This document shows positions 2,781 through 14,019 of a stretch of 64,000 nt of DNA, one piece after another. The translations under genes and the position numbers were made by a program. The first letter of the stretch is position 1, and each line of letters starts with the position of its first letter. The stretch spans positions 1,056,001 through 1,120,000 of the forward strand of contig CAWIIB010000001.1 of assembly GCA_963836075.1 (NCBI GenBank), in the 5' to 3' direction. The DNA is from an uncultured Acidobacteriota bacterium. Lineage in GTDB: Bacteria > Acidobacteriota > JAQAZP01. The notes beneath the pieces were generated by a model, which made no database searches, was not told the origin of the DNA, and saw only the letters and a program-made list of their open reading frames with translations.

Positions 2781-3041
2781 ATGAAACGCAAGAAACCGGA
2801 AGTGATCACCTTCAAGGTGGATGAATCGCTGCTCGAAGCGATGGAGGACATTCCCAACCGCTCCGAATTCATCCGCCATGCCGTGCAGGCAGCCCTCGAA
2901 CACAGTTGCCCGCTCTGCCGCGGCACCGGGGTGCTGACCCCGGAGCAGCACGACCACTGGAGGGCCTTCTCCGCCAGCCACCAGCTCCGGCGGTGCGAAG
3001 AGTGCCGTGAAATGCACCTGGTGTGCGAGAAGGGAAAGTGA
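2781..3041 (+). CDS. CopG/ribbon-helix-helix regulator with C-terminal Cys/His zinc-finger
   Basis: VITFKVD..L...NRSEFIR RHH pattern; CPLC, H, CEEC, H-x2-C; first gene of the znu operon. Confidence 0.75.
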   Translation: MKRKKPEVITFKVDESLLEAMEDIPNRSEFIRHAVQAALEHSCPLCRGTGVLTPEQHDHWRAFSASHQLRRCEECREMHLVCEKGK

Positions 3042-3961
3042 TGAACCGTCGCCCTGCCCTGCTGTTCTTTCTCCTGTTCACGGTACTGGCCTTCGGCTGC
3101 TCCGCCCCGAAGGAGACCGGCACGGCCCACAGGCCCCGCCCGGGGATATTCGTCAGCATCCCGCCGCAAAAATTCCTCGTGCAGCGCATCGCCGGAGACC
3201 TGGTCACGGTGGACGTCCTGTTGCCGCCCGGCCAGTCGCCGGCCACCTATGAACCGGCCCCCCGGCAGATGAGCCGGTTGTCGGAGTCGGCGCTCTTCTT
3301 CCGGGTGGGCGTGCCGTTCGAGGAGCGGTTGATGAAGAAAATCACCGACACCATGCCGGACCTGGAGGTGGTGGACACCCGGGAGGGAATCGAACTGCGA
3401 CGGATGGAGGGGGGACACGATCACGGCCACGCCCATCACGGCGATCACACTCATCAGCCCGGCAGCCCGGACCCGCACAGCTGGCTCGATCCGCGGCTGG
3501 CCATGATCCAGGCCCGCACGATGCACGATGCGCTGGTGCGGATCCTGCCCGGCAACGCCGACAGCCTGCGGGACGGGCTGGAGCGGCTGACCGCCGACCT
3601 GCAGGAAACCGACCGCCGGGTGGCACTGACTCTGGAGCCGCTGCGCGGCCGCAGCATCTACGTCTTCCACCCGGCTTACGGGTATCTGGCGGATGCCTAC
3701 GGCCTGACCCAGGTGGCGGTGGAACTGGAGGGCAAGGAGCCCAGCGCCAGGCAACTGGCCGACACCATCACCAGGGCCCGGCAGGACGGCGTACACGCCA
3801 TTTTTTACCAGCCGCAGTTTTCCCGGAGCAGCGTCGAGACGCTGTCCCGGGAAATCGGCGGCAACGCCGTTGAACTGGACCCGCTGGCCGAGGGCTACCT
3901 GGAGAACCTCGAGCGAATGGCGGCGGCCATCAGCGACGCACTGGAGGCGGAGGCGAATTAG
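3041..3961 (+). CDS. znuA: Zn/Mn ABC transporter substrate-binding lipoprotein
   Basis: LAFGC lipobox, His-rich loop, DPHSWLDP, FHPAYGY. Confidence 0.9.
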   Translation: MNRRPALLFFLLFTVLAFGCSAPKETGTAHRPRPGIFVSIPPQKFLVQRIAGDLVTVDVLLPPGQSPATYEPAPRQMSRLSESALFFRVGVPFEERLMKKITDTMPDLEVVDTREGIELRRMEGGHDHGHAHHGDHTHQPGSPDPHSWLDPRLAMIQARTMHDALVRILPGNADSLRDGLERLTADLQETDRRVALTLEPLRGRSIYVFHPAYGYLADAYGLTQVAVELEGKEPSARQLADTITRARQDGVHAIFYQPQFSRSSVETLSREIGGNAVELDPLAEGYLENLERMAAAISDALEAEAN

Positions 3962-3963
3962 CG

Positions 3964-4728
3964 ATGCCTGACCCTGACGGCAGCCCGGCCATCAGCGCCC
4001 TGAACCTCACCTTCACCTACGGCGGCCCGCCGGTGCTCGAGGATGCCACCTTCACCATCGAGCGCGGCGATTTCGCTTCCATCGTCGGCCCCAACGGCGG
4101 GGGCAAGACCACCCTGCTCAAACTGATCCTGGGTCTGCTGCACCCCTCGCGGGGCGAGATTCGGGTCAGCAACCGCCCGCCGGCTGACGCCCGCCCGCTC
4201 ATCGGGTATATGCCGCAGCACGTGGACCTCGATCCCAGCTTCCCGATAAACGTGACCGAGATCGTGCTGATGGGCCGCCTGGCGCCGGGCATGGCTCCCG
4301 GCCCCGTCGGCCGCAAGGACCGCCGGCTGGCCGCCGGCATCATCGAAATGCTCGGTCTGGAGGAGGTGCGCCAGAAGCCGCTGGCCGAACTTTCCGGCGG
4401 CCAGCGGCAACGGGTGCTCATCGCCCGGGCTCTGGCCTGCCAGCCGGAGATCCTGCTCCTTGACGAACCCACGGCACATCTCGACCTGCATCTGGAAGAC
4501 GAGTTTCTCGAAATTCTGAAGGACCTGAACCGGCGGATGACGGTGGTGATGGTTTCTCACGACCTGGGGTTCGTGGCCAGCTGCGTCAACCGCTGCGTCT
4601 GCGTCAATCGCCACGTGCACCTGCACCCCACCAGCGCACCGAAGGATGACCTGATCCGCAGCATGTATGGTGACAGCGTCCGCCTGATCCGCCACGATGT
4701 GGATTTCCCGGAGGGCGAAGAACGATGA
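3964..4728 (+). CDS. znuC: Zn/Mn ABC transporter ATPase
   Basis: GPNGGGKT, LSGGQ, LLLDEP. Confidence 0.9.
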   Translation: MPDPDGSPAISALNLTFTYGGPPVLEDATFTIERGDFASIVGPNGGGKTTLLKLILGLLHPSRGEIRVSNRPPADARPLIGYMPQHVDLDPSFPINVTEIVLMGRLAPGMAPGPVGRKDRRLAAGIIEMLGLEEVRQKPLAELSGGQRQRVLIARALACQPEILLLDEPTAHLDLHLEDEFLEILKDLNRRMTVVMVSHDLGFVASCVNRCVCVNRHVHLHPTSAPKDDLIRSMYGDSVRLIRHDVDFPEGEER

Positions 4729-5576
4729 GCGAGTTCGTCCAGGCCCTGAGCGAGCACGTCTTCCTGCAGCGGGCGCTGCTGGCCGGCCTGATGATCAGCC
4801 TGGCCTGCGGCATGGTGGGCACCTACGTGGTCTCCCGGAGGATCACCTACATCGCCGCCAGTGTGGCCCACTGCGTACTGGGCGGCATGGGCGCGGCCCG
4901 TTACCTCCAGGTGGTCCACGGCTGGGCCTGGCTGACACCGTTGTATGGCGCCCTGGCCGCCGCGGTGACCGCCGCGGTGATCATCGGCCTGATCAGCCTC
5001 AAGGCCCGGGAACGGGAAGACACCGTGATCGGTGCACTCTGGGCCATCGGCATGGCCGCCGGCGTGCTGTTCATATCCCGTACCCCCGGATACAACGAAG
5101 ACCTGATGAGCTACCTCTTCGGCAACATCCTGGTGATCTCCTCGCTTGATCTCTGGCTCATCGCCCTGCTGGACCTGGTGGTGGCGGCGATCACCCTGCT
5201 GTTCTACCGCCAGTTGCAGGCGGTCTGCTTCGACGAGGAATTTTCCCGTCTCCGCGGCCTGCGGGTGGAATTCCACTACCTGCTGCTGCTCTGTCTCACC
5301 GCCCTCACCGTGGTGCTGCTGGTCACCGTGGTGGGCATCGTGATGGTCATCGCCCTGCTCACCCTGCCGGCGGCCATTGCCGGATACTTCTCTCGTTCCC
5401 TGTGGCAGATGATGGTGCTGGCCACCGCAGTTTGCGCCCTGCTCACCAGTTCGGGACTGGCCCTCAGCTACGGCCCGAACCTCCCGGCCGGCGCCACCAT
5501 CATCATTCTCGCCGGCGCCGCCTACCTGCTGGTGGCTGGGGGACGGGCGCTGCTGCGCAGGTCCGCATCGGGCTAG
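4725..5576 (+). CDS. znuB: Zn/Mn ABC transporter permease
   Basis: ABC-3 permease motifs (SYLFGNIL, FDEEF), ATGA overlap with znuC. Confidence 0.9.
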   Translation: MSEFVQALSEHVFLQRALLAGLMISLACGMVGTYVVSRRITYIAASVAHCVLGGMGAARYLQVVHGWAWLTPLYGALAAAVTAAVIIGLISLKAREREDTVIGALWAIGMAAGVLFISRTPGYNEDLMSYLFGNILVISSLDLWLIALLDLVVAAITLLFYRQLQAVCFDEEFSRLRGLRVEFHYLLLLCLTALTVVLLVTVVGIVMVIALLTLPAAIAGYFSRSLWQMMVLATAVCALLTSSGLALSYGPNLPAGATIIILAGAAYLLVAGGRALLRRSASG

Positions 5577-5859
5577 CCTCAAAAACCAGGCCGGAGCAAT
5601 AATTGACATAATTGCTCCAAGTTTCGAAATTCTTACGATTTATGTGAAAAATGACTGGAATTTCATCAACTGCTAGTTTATATTGAAGTTCAAGAGTTTT
5701 TTGATAGGGAACCTTCGGATGTTACTGGGGCCGGAGGATCGATTCCCAGCCTGTCGGATCGGGGCGCCAGACCCCGGATCTTGATGTTTTTCCAAACGCC
5801 ATCACCATCACCGGAATCGTCCGGGTTGATGGGTGAGATTTCCGGAAAGGAGTGCTTTA

Positions 5860-6969
5860 ATGCGTTACCGTGGTATGAAGGGTTGGATCTGTTGCTCCGC
5901 CCTCCTCGTTTTCCTTTTCTCCATCGGGCTCATGTTCAGCGCCGGCACCAGCCTGGCCGCTGACAGAGTTGTACTGGGAGAACTCTTCTCCCGCACCTCT
6001 TGACCATACTGCCCATCCGCGGTACGCGGATTTGAAGATCTCGTCGACACCTACGGCACCGACCAGTTCCTCCCCATCACCTGGTATCTGCCCGGCTACA
6101 CCGGCAGTATCCCCGAAGCCGCCACGCGGGCCTCGGCCAGTTTCTACAATGTCACCGGAGCGCCCACGGCATGGTTCGACGGCTGGACCAATTCGGTGGG
6201 AGGCCTGCCCTCAGGCTCCATGTTCTCCTACTACAACCCGATTGTGATCAGCCACCTCGGCTCGGCAAGCCCGTTGGAGATGACCGCCAGCTATACCCAG
6301 ACAGGACTCGACGTGACGCTCAACGTGCATATCGATGTCACCGGCTTTGTCAGCACCACCAGCAACCGGGTACACTTCATCGTCTGCGAGGACGGGGGTC
6401 AGGGCAATGTGAACATGTCCCGCCAGGCCCTGACCTACGAGCCGTTCACCCTCACCTCCCCTGGACAGTCAGTGGACATCCAGCGCACCACCACCCTCTC
6501 AGCCGCCTGGACCGGCCCGATCAACATCATCGTCTTTGTCCAGAGCCACGGTTCGAACTTTGACGTGCTGCAGGCGACCCTGGCCGCCGAGGAGTGGGCG
6601 GGAGACACCGTGGGCGTCACCCTTGGTTGCACCCCCGGTTCCGGCACACTCCCCTTCACTTCCAGCATGTGGCTCCGTCTGGAGAACCTCACCCCCTGGT
6701 CCCGGCGGATCTCGGGCAAGATCAACGCCACCATCGGCAACGGCTCGACGTTTACCAGCTGGAGAGCCGGTTGGACCAACCTCAGTCCCGCTGAAGTCTA
6801 TACATCAAACTGGAACCAGAACTTCCCGGGCCTGGCTTCGCTGGTGGGCGACAACATCTTCACCCTCTACGGCTACGATGTAACACCCGCACCGTATAAC
6901 CAGCCGCCCTATGCCCCGGACGGCGGTTCCGACACCGCGTCCTGCACCATCACGGCGTACGCGCCCTGA
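5860..6969 (+). CDS. Secreted Omp28-like thioredoxin-fold selenoprotein (Sec at TGA 6001-6003) with C-terminal 'NQPP' domain
   Basis: AAGGAG RBS, ATG 5860, signal peptide, VVLGELFSRTS-TGA-PYC, then YNVTGAPTAWFDG; same frame as ORF 6196-6969. Confidence 0.8.
6015..6031 (+). promoter_or_regulatory. Bacterial SECIS-like hairpin
   Basis: ATCCGCG-GTA-CGCGGAT; G-initiated loop starts 18 nt after the in-frame TGA. Confidence 0.65.
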
Positions 6970-6991: not shown

Positions 6992-7030
6992 AAAGCCCCG
7001 GTCATCGCAACGGTGACCGGGGCTTTTTTT
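6992..7030 (+). terminator. Rho-independent terminator
   Basis: AAAGCCCCGGTCATCG-CAA-CGGTGACCGGGGC followed by T7. Confidence 0.9.
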
Positions 7031-11679: not shown

Positions 11680-11740
11680 AACCGGCCGGCGGACCGGGAA
11701 GGCCCACCGGACTCACTGCTACTCATTGAGGGAGATGAAG

Positions 11741-12322
11741 ATGACCAGTAGAAAAACCTGTCGGCGATCCGATTCAGCGGGGCGCGTCCTGGCGGCCCTG
11801 GTGCTGCCCGTCATGATGGTGGCGTCATTCTGCATCGGCTGCGGGAGCGCAGCCGACAAGGCGATGACCGAAGGATCATCGGGTCGCACCGCTGCTGCCG
11901 AGTTCAGTCTCACCGACATTCAAGGGAAAGTTCACCACCTCTCCGACTACCGGGGCAAGGTGGTGGTGCTCAACTTCTGGGATACCTGGTGCGGGCCCTG
12001 CCGCCAGGAAATCCCGGGGTTCATCGCCCTCCAGGATCAGTTGGGGTCCGAGGGGCTCCAGTTGCTGGGGGTGGCCCTGGGCCAGGAGGGAGCGGCCAGG
12101 GTCAAGGACTTCACCGCCGGCGCCGGCATAAACTACCCGGTCCTGCTCCTCGGTGAGAACAGCACAGTTCTGGCCGACTACGGCGGGATCAACTCCATCC
12201 CCGCCACATTTATCATCGACCGTGAGGGATACATCGCCGATAAGCACATCGGTTACCTCGCCAAAAGCGCATTCGAGGCAATGGTCAGGCCGGTTATCGG
12301 GACCGGGGGGGAGACGTCGTGA
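11741..12322 (+). CDS. TlpA/redoxin family lipoprotein
   Basis: LNFWDTWCGPC, IPATFIID; start approximate. Confidence 0.85.
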   Translation: MTSRKTCRRSDSAGRVLAALVLPVMMVASFCIGCGSAADKAMTEGSSGRTAAAEFSLTDIQGKVHHLSDYRGKVVVLNFWDTWCGPCRQEIPGFIALQDQLGSEGLQLLGVALGQEGAARVKDFTAGAGINYPVLLLGENSTVLADYGGINSIPATFIIDREGYIADKHIGYLAKSAFEAMVRPVIGTGGETS

Positions 12323-14019
12323 GCAGACTCACCATCCTGATCCTGCTCTTCTTCGCACTTGCCTGCGTGCCGGCCGCGGTGGCCGCCGGGCCGGAATTGC
12401 CGGTGATCACCGGTGGTCCCGGTGAACTGGTGACCCGCCAACTGGAGAGCCCCGCATCCTGCCCCATGGGCCTGGCCTGGGACGGGGAGCGTCTCTGGGT
12501 TTCCGACCGGCGAGAGGACCGGCTCTATGCCTTTGACGCACTGTCGGGCAGTCTGGTGGCCGAACTGCCCTCCCCCGGCTTCCAGCCCGCCGGGCTGGCC
12601 TGGGACGGCCGCTGCCTCTGGTGCGCGGACCAGGAGGAGGGGAAACTCTATCGCATCGAGCCGGACACCGGCCTGGTGGTGCGCACGGTGGACGCCCCCT
12701 GGCCCAAACCAACCGGCCTGGCCTGGGACGGAGAGCGCCTCTGGGTGGCCGACGAGCGCAAACGGGTGATCTGCCTGGTGGACCCGGCGGACGGCACCAC
12801 CATCCGGTCCTTCCCGGCCCCGGCGGAGTCACCCCAGGGCCTGGCCTGGGACGGCCGCACGCTCTGGTGCAGCGACCGCAAGATGGACCGGGTCCACGGC
12901 ATCAGCCCCGAGGGGGGTGAGGTACTGATCACCCTGCACAGCCCCGGGCCCTACCCCACCGGCCTGGCCTGTGACGGGGGAGACGGCCTCTGGTCCGTGG
13001 ACTACCAGACCGATCGCTGCTCGTCGCTGGAGGTCGGGGGCCGCGGCCCGGCAATCCTGGTGGATGAGCAGCGGCACGCCCGGATCACCGTCACCACCGA
13101 TGTGCTCAACTATGGTCCCGACGTCACGGAAAAGCTGGAGATATACCTTGCTCTGCCCTCGGACCTGCCCGGGCAGCAGTTGATCAACGGCCCGCAGTTC
13201 TCCCCGGAACCAACCCGGATGACCAGCGACCGCTGGGGACAGGCAGTGGCGGTTTTCGAAACCAGCGGGATTGGAGCCGGCACACTGAACCGGGTGGAGA
13301 TGGAGGTGGAGGCGAAGATTTCCCGCACGCGGCATCTGTTCCACCCGGACGACGTGGGACCGCTGGCGGAGATCCCCCCGGCCATCAGCGGGGCCTACCT
13401 GGCGGATGACACCAAGTTCGACCTGCGGCACCCCCTGATCCAGGCCATTGCGAACGAACTGAACGCCGGGGTCGACAACCCCTACTGGATCGCCCGCAAC
13501 ACGTTTCACTACCTGATCGACAACCTGTTCTACGAACTGGCCGGCGGCTGGAACACCGCCCCGGCAGTCCTCGAGCGGGGCAACGGATCCTGCTCCGAGT
13601 ACACCTTCTGTTTCATCGCCCTCTGCCGGGCGGCCGGGCTCCCCGCGCGTTATGCCGGGTCGGTTGTGGTCCGCGGCGATGATGCCAGTTACGACGATGT
13701 GTTTCACCGCTGGGCCGAAGTCTACCTGCCCCGGGTGGGCTGGGTGCCGGTGGATCCCAGCGGCGGTGACGATCCCCTGCCCGCCGACCAGGCGTCCTTC
13801 TTTGGTCAGCTGTCCAACCGCTTCCTGATCACCACCCACGGCGGGGGCGGGTCCGAGTACCTGGGGTGGGACTACAACGGTTCGCAGCGCTGGACCACCC
13901 GGGGCAAGGCCAGGGTGCGCACGGAGACGGTGGCCGACTGGGAGCCGCTGGGCACGGACAAGCCGCCGGTGCCCAACGGGCTCACCACCCGCGGCGGCGA
14001 AACCTGCAGCCGGCCCTGA
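12319..14019 (+). CDS. Secreted beta-propeller plus transglutaminase-like domain protein
   Basis: Repeated P.GLAWDG..LW blades; GSCSEY...HRWAEVY...DPS triad. Confidence 0.85.
   Translation: MSRLTILILLFFALACVPAAVAAGPELPVITGGPGELVTRQLESPASCPMGLAWDGERLWVSDRREDRLYAFDALSGSLVAELPSPGFQPAGLAWDGRCLWCADQEEGKLYRIEPDTGLVVRTVDAPWPKPTGLAWDGERLWVADERKRVICLVDPADGTTIRSFPAPAESPQGLAWDGRTLWCSDRKMDRVHGISPEGGEVLITLHSPGPYPTGLACDGGDGLWSVDYQTDRCSSLEVGGRGPAILVDEQRHARITVTTDVLNYGPDVTEKLEIYLALPSDLPGQQLINGPQFSPEPTRMTSDRWGQAVAVFETSGIGAGTLNRVEMEVEAKISRTRHLFHPDDVGPLAEIPPAISGAYLADDTKFDLRHPLIQAIANELNAGVDNPYWIARNTFHYLIDNLFYELAGGWNTAPAVLERGNGSCSEYTFCFIALCRAAGLPARYAGSVVVRGDDASYDDVFHRWAEVYLPRVGWVPVDPSGGDDPLPADQASFFGQLSNRFLITTHGGGGSEYLGWDYNGSQRWTTRGKARVRTETVADWEPLGTDKPPVPNGLTTRGGETCSRP

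Follow-up and report, generated by a model that had tools for sequence, protein, structure and literature searches.

A gene for a probable exported selenoprotein with a U-P-Y-C redox motif, distantly related to the named Omp28-related family, in an uncultured Acidobacteriota bacterium

The closest solved counterpart of the protein described here is HBP35, the 35-kDa hemin-binding protein of the Bacteroidota pathogen Porphyromonas gingivalis (PDB 5Y1A). As outlined in PMC2907840, HBP35 resides at the surface and contains a thioredoxin motif as well as a domain for attachment at its C-terminus; the thioredoxin activity of the recombinant protein is abolished by mutating two cysteines, and HBP35 binds hemin and is required for growth when hemin is scarce. 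Omp28 is a family of outer-membrane lipoproteins, and NCBIfam contains a model, NF045500 (Omp28_seleno, of the type equivalog_domain), for an 'Omp28-related selenoprotein', i.e. a named selenoprotein family of the Omp28-like kind. A further relative among solved structures, Atu2684 of Agrobacterium (AGR_C_4864, PDB 2AXO), has neither selenocysteine (Sec) nor an assigned function. Here we describe a gene at 5860-6969 of a 64,000-nucleotide window (the whole stretch analysed, G000:C1:1056001-1120000) from an uncultured Acidobacteriota bacterium, whose genome, G000, comprises 6.23 Mb on 10 contigs and is 94.7% complete. Judged from sequence comparison and from the machinery of the genome, it is highly probable that 5860-6969 is one intact gene for an exported selenoprotein of 369 residues.

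From ATG 5860 the frame runs to a TGA stop at 6967-6969 and contains a sole internal TGA at 6001-6003 (codon 48), with no further stops or frameshifts. This frame, together with the AAGGAG that precedes it, had been proposed in an earlier note made from the letters of the sequence, and its coordinates hold. Open reading frame (ORF) calling under translation table 11 breaks the gene into two pieces in the same frame, 5833..6003 and 6196..6969. Public gene calls represent the gene and its near relatives only as truncated 'hypothetical proteins' of 249-275 residues, without the signal peptide and the active site. The peptide around the TGA reads VVLGELFSRTS-U-PYCPSAVRG, with YNVTGAPTAWFDG farther along. 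By inspection, the N-terminus has a basic n-region (MRYRGMKG), a hydrophobic core and a cleavage site between SLA and AD, and the paralogs have matching sites in which A-x-A is followed by A. A lipoprotein reading was considered and dropped on inspection, as no lipobox follows the hydrophobic core. The AAGGAG at 5847-5852 and the terminator at 6992-7026 (Table 1) therefore give the gene its own ribosome-binding site and terminator. No RNA dataset was listed among the public runs matching this stretch.

A local profile search over all fetched loci yielded 51 distinct modules, a set that leaves out 15 weaker matches of the 301-genome scan described below. In the column of the first Cys of the CxxC motif, these modules have 22 TGA, 23 TGC and 5 TGT codons and 1 gap. 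The TGA therefore falls at the first Cys of U/CxxC in all of the TGA-bearing homologous modules examined (22/22), and the in-frame UGA stands opposite Cys in 28 homologs, which is the pairing that the earlier note had named as a check for this site. One TGC row (L060) comes from genome G048; no conclusion rests on it, and alignment A5 (43 sequences) was built without that genome. The sole invariant columns in A5 are U/C17, C20 and P71, i.e. the CxxC and the cis-proline of the thioredoxin fold. G000 has five paralogous modules, in each of which a single TGA occupies position 1 of the redox motif (Table 1). The orthologs in the two other genomes of the genus are 85% and 80% identical across residues 1-369, and each keeps one TGA. 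A scan of the phylum with a profile of the N-terminal module gave 62 matches in 41 of 301 genomes, of which 21 contain exactly one TGA and 41 none. TGA forms make up 5/5 of the matches in G000, 6/6 in G001 and 5/6 in G002, and beyond the genus they occur in four genomes (G035, G050, G164 and G290). A metagenome homolog that is 49% identical (P0013) reads CPYCPSAV. One locus in G164 (L088, G164:C8) has TGA at locus positions 698 and 1548, in Sec-type modules UGTC and USSC that lie about 850 nt apart on the same strand and are either a tandem pair or a duplicated module.

These patterns bear directly on whether the gene is a pseudogene, in which a Cys codon (TGC or TGT) has mutated to TGA and the gene is decaying. 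A single base change would suffice, and the public calls of the gene and its close relatives are all truncated to the lengths given above. However, two other species retain the TGA in their orthologs, which are 80-85% identical, and it is also present in all five G000 paralogs and the remaining TGA-bearing modules; the frame is otherwise open, with coding constraint on both sides of the TGA and a full Sec machinery in the genome. On this comparative evidence the pseudogene reading is very unlikely. The constraint is seen in codon comparisons with the same-genus orthologs. Against G002, the window has 10 synonymous-only and 5 amino-acid-changing codon differences in codons 1-47, and 60 and 49, respectively, over 322 aligned codons downstream. 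Against G001 the counts are 8 and 5 in codons 1-47 and 67 and 69 over 320 aligned codons downstream. Upstream of the TGA, synonymous-only differences are at least as numerous as amino-acid-changing ones in 3/3 comparisons; downstream this holds in 1/3, and the other two are near parity. Such a synonymous share is not expected of untranslated DNA, and it therefore points to coding constraint on both sides of the TGA.

An assembly or sequencing error at 6001-6003 would also create an in-frame TGA, but its probability is negligible, as the independent genomes G001 and G002 carry the same codon. Four public runs, labelled as freshwater sediment, marine sediment, soil and salt marsh metagenomes, contain matching contigs. 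The contig from run X1 is identical over 5700-6004, across the TGA, although it stops 1 nt past that codon and may derive from the source sample. A salt-marsh contig from run X5, about 89% identical, covers 5838-6352 and differs at 5995-5999 and at 6039, with no difference at 6001-6003 among the rows listed (62 further rows are unlisted). The contigs from runs X2 and X4 leave 6001-6003 uncovered. The two other genomes of the genus and, in the rows listed, the X5 contig bear out the TGA as genuine.

Profile searches of G000 recovered every component sought of the Sec machinery, each above its curated cut-off: selA (562.8 bits, cut-off 267.9), selB (365.7 bits, cut-off 242.25), two copies of selD (348.5 and 345.8 bits, cut-off 125) and tRNA-Sec (74.7 bits, gathering score 47), the last identified by ARAGORN as tRNA-SeC with anticodon TCA. 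Each selD copy has one in-frame TGA. Both are Sec forms (SGGUAAK), at G000:C4:17381-18301 (L018) and G000:C9:892330-893256 (L019), and their hairpins of the Sec insertion sequence (SECIS) are near-identical. TGA is also an ordinary stop in this genome, where it terminates 127 of the 220 frames that bear the C-terminal domain discussed below.

Downstream of the UGA, after an 11-nt spacer, lies the 7-bp hairpin with a G-initiated loop that the earlier note had placed here; it occupies nucleotides 15-31 numbered from the U of the UGA, and its loop begins 18 nt past that codon. It is a stem-loop at SECIS distance with a G in the apical loop. Two reviews describe the minimal SECIS of E. coli as an upper stem-loop of 17 nt that stands 11 nt from the UGA and has G23 and U24 in the loop and a bulged U17. 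Compared with the fdhF element of E. coli in these descriptions, the present hairpin has the same 17-nt length, the same 11-nt spacing and a G-U in the apical loop, whereas its loop is the 3-nt GUA, with the pair of nucleotides at G22-U23 instead of G23-U24. It is closer to the element of G000's own selD genes, both of which have an 11-nt spacer, a 9-bp stem and the 3-nt loop GGU, than to that of E. coli fdhF. Hairpins were scored as SECIS-like when their stem had 4 bp or more, their loop measured 3-14 nt with a G in its first two places, and they lay 16-37 nt past the codon. By these criteria a hairpin is present in 21/22 Sec forms versus 3/28 Cys forms, and the Cys forms that fail them include Bacteroidales genes with the same peptide, PYCPSAARG. 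In each of four paralogs inspected, a hairpin stands at this offset too, the loops being GUA, GGUC, GGA and GGA. In nine sequences of the paralog clade, one stem pair covaries (CG in 4, UA in 5), and 96.8% of cells are paired versus 46-70% when the partner column is slid. Machinery, Sec/Cys pairing and the conserved hairpin all support the selenoprotein reading of the earlier note, and the view that this is a genuine selenoprotein gene that has been mis-annotated is well supported by the sequence comparisons.

An AlphaFold2 model of residues 32-247 (m88f8630b1a04), computed with 43 homologs, is confident (pLDDT 92.7, pTM 0.90). Its first domain follows the thioredoxin order b-a-b-a-b-b-a (in model numbering E7-13, H20-33, E39-45, H54-60, E72-75, E79-82 and H91-102, with U17/C20 and P71). 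U48 and C51 start helix 1 and P102 precedes strand 3, and an eight-strand sandwich follows. The fold, CxxC and cis-Pro that characterise thioredoxin-fold CxxC oxidoreductases are thus all present, and alignment and model agree with the earlier note on each of them. In a Foldseek search of the PDB the best match was HBP35 (5y1a, E 7.3e-9, TM 0.75), over both domains; the second was 2axo, and the Omp28 domain 2r2c matched the beta-sandwich. Among sequence profiles the best match was 2axo (E 1.4e-12), with HBP35 (E 2.1e-7) again matching over both domains, along with thioredoxins and glutaredoxins.

The fold also speaks to the alternative that the true product is the short protein from GTG 6196 to 6969 (257 residues), the TGA ending a small upstream ORF that might act as a selenium-dependent switch. 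This short form is the result that ORF finding under table 11 returns. Moreover, a recoding efficiency of 30-40% at UGA is reported for E. coli (PMC4513850), and some termination at 6003 is therefore to be expected. However, the short product would be without the signal peptide and would keep no more than the last quarter of a thioredoxin domain that is confidently modelled as one unit. It would thereby lose a CxxC and upstream strand that are conserved, along with the cis-Pro, across 43 homologs, and it would retain a C-terminal domain that is otherwise found on frames with signal-peptide-like starts. We regard its chances as slim, and a full-length selenoprotein remains our preferred reading.

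Among named families, the top match of the protein is NF045500 (E 1.6e-14), with residues 34-179 aligning to positions 37-188 of the 377 in the profile. The other four G000 paralogs also match, three of them across the internal TGA and the fifth only downstream of its TGA. The protein resembles the named family in placing Sec in the redox motif of a thioredoxin-plus-sandwich module of the Omp28/HBP35 type, and departs from it in that the match is limited to the thioredoxin part and the beginning of the sandwich. The C-terminal part of the NF045500 model matches segments of other proteins that resemble FlgD-Ig domains and type IX secretion system (T9SS) tails, and not the C-terminal domain found here. 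HBP35, which matches over profile positions 5-207, has the same arrangement of a signal followed by a thioredoxin-like domain with CxxC, then a sandwich and finally a C-terminal domain (the last serving surface attachment in HBP35). It differs in having Cys in place of Sec and in a sequence identity of 16%; moreover, its tail is a type IX secretion domain, whereas the tail here is an unrelated and unnamed 122-residue domain. Atu2684 is the best profile match among solved structures (profile positions 8-127) and the second structural one, but the remainder of the protein differs. Omp28 itself (2R2C) superposes on the beta-sandwich (TM 0.66, target-normalised). Members of that family are lipoproteins, whereas by inspection the present protein has no lipobox and its signal looks like type I. 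We found no open paper pairing 'Omp28' with 'selenoprotein'. Two recent resources on selenoproteins, deep-Sep and BSepDB, make no mention of Omp28, hemin, outer membrane or signal peptide in their main texts, and the supplementary family table of BSepDB may list the family.

Several observations weigh against the reading of the gene as a selenoprotein of this family and function. The protein scores 54.1 bits against the NF045500 cut-off of 200, a score reached in 0/301 genomes of the phylum. Because of this shortfall we consider it a divergent new member; as judged from sequence, it is a divergent relative of the named selenoprotein family that lies beyond its curated bounds. The Pfam Omp28 family (PF11551) matches residues 92-186 with 17 bits against a threshold of 34.9 (E 0.0055), and the NCBIfam Omp28 model (NF033782) is likewise under threshold (17.5 vs 150 bits), so the label 'Omp28-like' given in the earlier note stands loosely, through NF045500 and HBP35, and not through Omp28 membership. 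Three genomes of a single genus supply 17 of the 22 TGA modules, which are not independent for that reason, and the Sec sequences with the hairpin are closely related. A metagenome homolog of 622 residues (P0014, 46% identical) has Ser at the site (SAYC), so not all members of the family rely on this residue for catalysis. The hairpin criteria are ones that we take to be those of bSECISearch. The 76-nt stretch has an ordinary folding energy (z -0.43, with 65/200 shuffles equal or better), and for this reason the hairpin counts by its position and conservation. Nor do mean folding energies downstream of the codon separate Sec from Cys forms (-12.3 vs -12.5 kcal/mol, Mann-Whitney p 0.74). The covariation concerns a single pair and perhaps reflects 1-2 evolutionary events. 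The hairpin has no match in Rfam at E<=10, the weak Rfam matches all falling on the terminator, and it lacks the bulged U17 that the two reviews give for the E. coli element. Lastly, function, location and an oxidising or reducing role are all drawn from a structural relative of 16% identity.

If the gene is translated in full, the hairpin would recruit SelB with Sec-tRNA(Sec) during translation and Sec would enter at codon 48. The signal peptide would lead the chain through the Sec translocon and would be removed after residue 33. The mature protein would then consist of the thioredoxin-fold domain with U48-P-Y-C51 and cis-proline P102, the beta-sandwich, and a C-terminal beta-sandwich of 122 residues. 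In such a protein the U48 selenolate would make the nucleophilic attack, leaving the mixed selenenylsulfide to be resolved by C51, by analogy with the mode of the HBP35 CxxC in the insulin-reduction assay. Sec is expected to be a better nucleophile than Cys, as a general account of selenoprotein chemistry states (PMC11431864). Because HBP35 has a cysteine-dependent thioredoxin activity, we infer a redox function by analogy, and we see roughly even chances that the protein acts as a thiol-disulfide oxidoreductase in the envelope or at the cell surface.

A less probable alternative, though one to be taken seriously, is that the protein is a real selenoprotein whose U/C pair binds or transforms a metal or metalloid, heme, peroxide or polysulfide and is not a general oxidoreductase. 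HBP35 binds hemin and is needed when hemin is scarce, as outlined in PMC2907840. The gene follows znuA-znuC-znuB, an order kept in both same-genus orthologs, and some paralogs fuse the module to FG-GAP-type repeats, suggesting a surface role. However, the znu linkage is confined to one genus and does not extend to the paralogs, a 284-nt gap and a ribosome-binding site of its own part the gene from znu, and the residues that never vary form the classic redox set of CxxC and cis-Pro. The znuA-znuC-znuB genes, for a metal ABC transporter, lie at 3023-5576, directly upstream on the same strand. In the orthologs the flanking ZnuB is 94-96% identical and the downstream gene about 80%.

The C-terminal domain (residues 248-369) was characterised separately. 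Its model is a confident eight-strand sandwich (pLDDT 95.3). A tblastn search of G000 returned 220 matches (about 200 proteins), of which 198 extend to query residue >= 115; among the 199 that extend to residue >= 110, 174 end at the identical C-terminal position. The conserved motif in alignment A6 is ...DVTPAPYNQPPY.P.GDTD...CTVTG.AP-stop. Of 41 relatives, only the three members of the genus have the domain. At E<=10, none of the Pfam or NCBIfam families matched more than 2 of 21 copies, and none matched residues 248-369 of the present protein. The ESM Atlas had no usable relative (best score 0.80), and Foldseek returned only generic Ig/FnIII-like sandwiches (RbmA, CARDB and transglutaminase barrels). 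By a crude test, signal-peptide-like starts are present on 111 of 167 frames with the domain. Of the five paralogs in G000, two end in this domain and three in FG-GAP-type repeats.

In metagenome homologs P0014, P0042 and P0087 the same slot is taken by a type IX secretion tail. P0014, the homolog with Ser at the site, also carries a choice-of-anchor J domain. Residues 248-369 have no match at E<=10 to a T9SS sorting domain (TIGR04183 or type B), such as cargo of that system would carry. The type A tail (TIGR04183) and SprA had no match in G000, a search in which the control genomes gave no match either. A PorU-like C25 peptidase (the type IX 'sortase') is encoded at G000:C1:1027253-1029103 on the minus strand, about 27 kb ahead of the window start; its frame of 937 residues scores 201.7 bits against a cut-off of 420. 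Besides it there are twenty weaker C25-region matches, some of them in frames ending in the C-terminal domain. It is possible that the PorU-like peptidase is the processing enzyme for the domain. The domain is a candidate for an undescribed anchoring or sorting domain, and we tentatively suggest, at somewhat less than even confidence, that it anchors or sorts the protein.

Table 1. Features of the selenoprotein gene, further copies of its C-terminal domain and redox motifs of the five paralogous modules. Positions are those of the window unless a contig of G000 is named.
Feature	Position	Strand	Basis or genome
Shine-Dalgarno AAGGAG	5847..5852	+	7 nt ahead of ATG 5860; read off sequence
Putative full selenoprotein coding sequence, 369 codons, Sec = codon 48, TGA stop	5860..6969	+	translated with TGA = U
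Predicted type I signal peptide, residues 1-33, cleavage after S-L-A	5860..5958	+	inspection only
Thioredoxin-fold domain, about residues 38-133, U48/C51 and cis-Pro P102 (codon 6163-6165)	5971..6258	+	model, alignment, profiles
UGA probably read as selenocysteine (U48), position 1 of U-P-Y-C	6001..6003	+	column shared with Cys homologs
SECIS-like hairpin AUCCGCG-GUA-CGCGGAU, 17 nt, 7-bp stem, loop GUA	6015..6031	+	folding, geometry, conservation
Beta-sandwich domain, about residues 139-241, Omp28/HBP35-like	6274..6582	+	model, Foldseek
C-terminal beta-sandwich domain, residues 248-369, candidate anchoring/sorting	6601..6966	+	tblastn, alignment A6, model
Intrinsic terminator, 16-pair stem then T run, 23 nt past stop	6992..7026	+	sequence
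C-terminal domain, example copy	C1:1148517-1148882		G000
C-terminal domain, example copy	C1:1630195-1630557		G000
Paralog motif UPYC (present gene)	6001..6003 (codon), 5860..6969 (gene)	+	G000
Paralog motif UPNC	C9:2.706 Mb		G000
Paralog motif UAYC	C1:0.679 Mb		G000
Paralog motif UAYC	C9:2.000 Mb		G000
Paralog motif UGYC	C9:3.141 Mb		G000

Downstream of the gene, 11726-14019 encodes a member of the AhpC/TSA-redoxin family that is extended at its N-terminus by about 55 residues; a protein with a transglutaminase core comes next. The AhpC/TSA-redoxin gene is a second thiol-redox gene, about 4.7 kb downstream of that of the selenoprotein.

The novelty of the selenoprotein had been overrated in the earlier note, as a curated NCBIfam model for Omp28-related selenoproteins (NF045500) exists. 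Thioredoxin-fold selenoproteins with UxxC form the most common class, and a name already exists for the Omp28-related kind; therefore, no new principle emerges from the gene itself. The unnamed C-terminal domain is the more novel lead. The public forms are truncated and NF045500 fails to reach these proteins, so selenoproteome counts for the lineage are too low, with at least five genes per genome missed. The occurrence of Sec, Cys and Ser at one site offers a natural series for probing the benefit of Sec in an extracytoplasmic thioredoxin fold. An exported UxxC module, present in multiple copies and with varied surface-type tails, suggests that an anaerobic-sediment bacterium conducts selenium-dependent redox chemistry in its envelope. 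Going further, one may speculate, with a good deal of doubt, that the protein is a surface-displayed Sec-thioredoxin redox head, one of five in the genome, and that a lineage-specific, so far undescribed system of C-terminal domains, with about 200 cargo proteins in each genome, delivers or anchors it. The domain takes the place in the architecture that a type IX secretion tail has in HBP35 and in the metagenome homologs. If true, this would mean selenium-based thiol or (poly)sulfide chemistry outside the cytoplasm of a sediment bacterium, together with a new protein-sorting signal.

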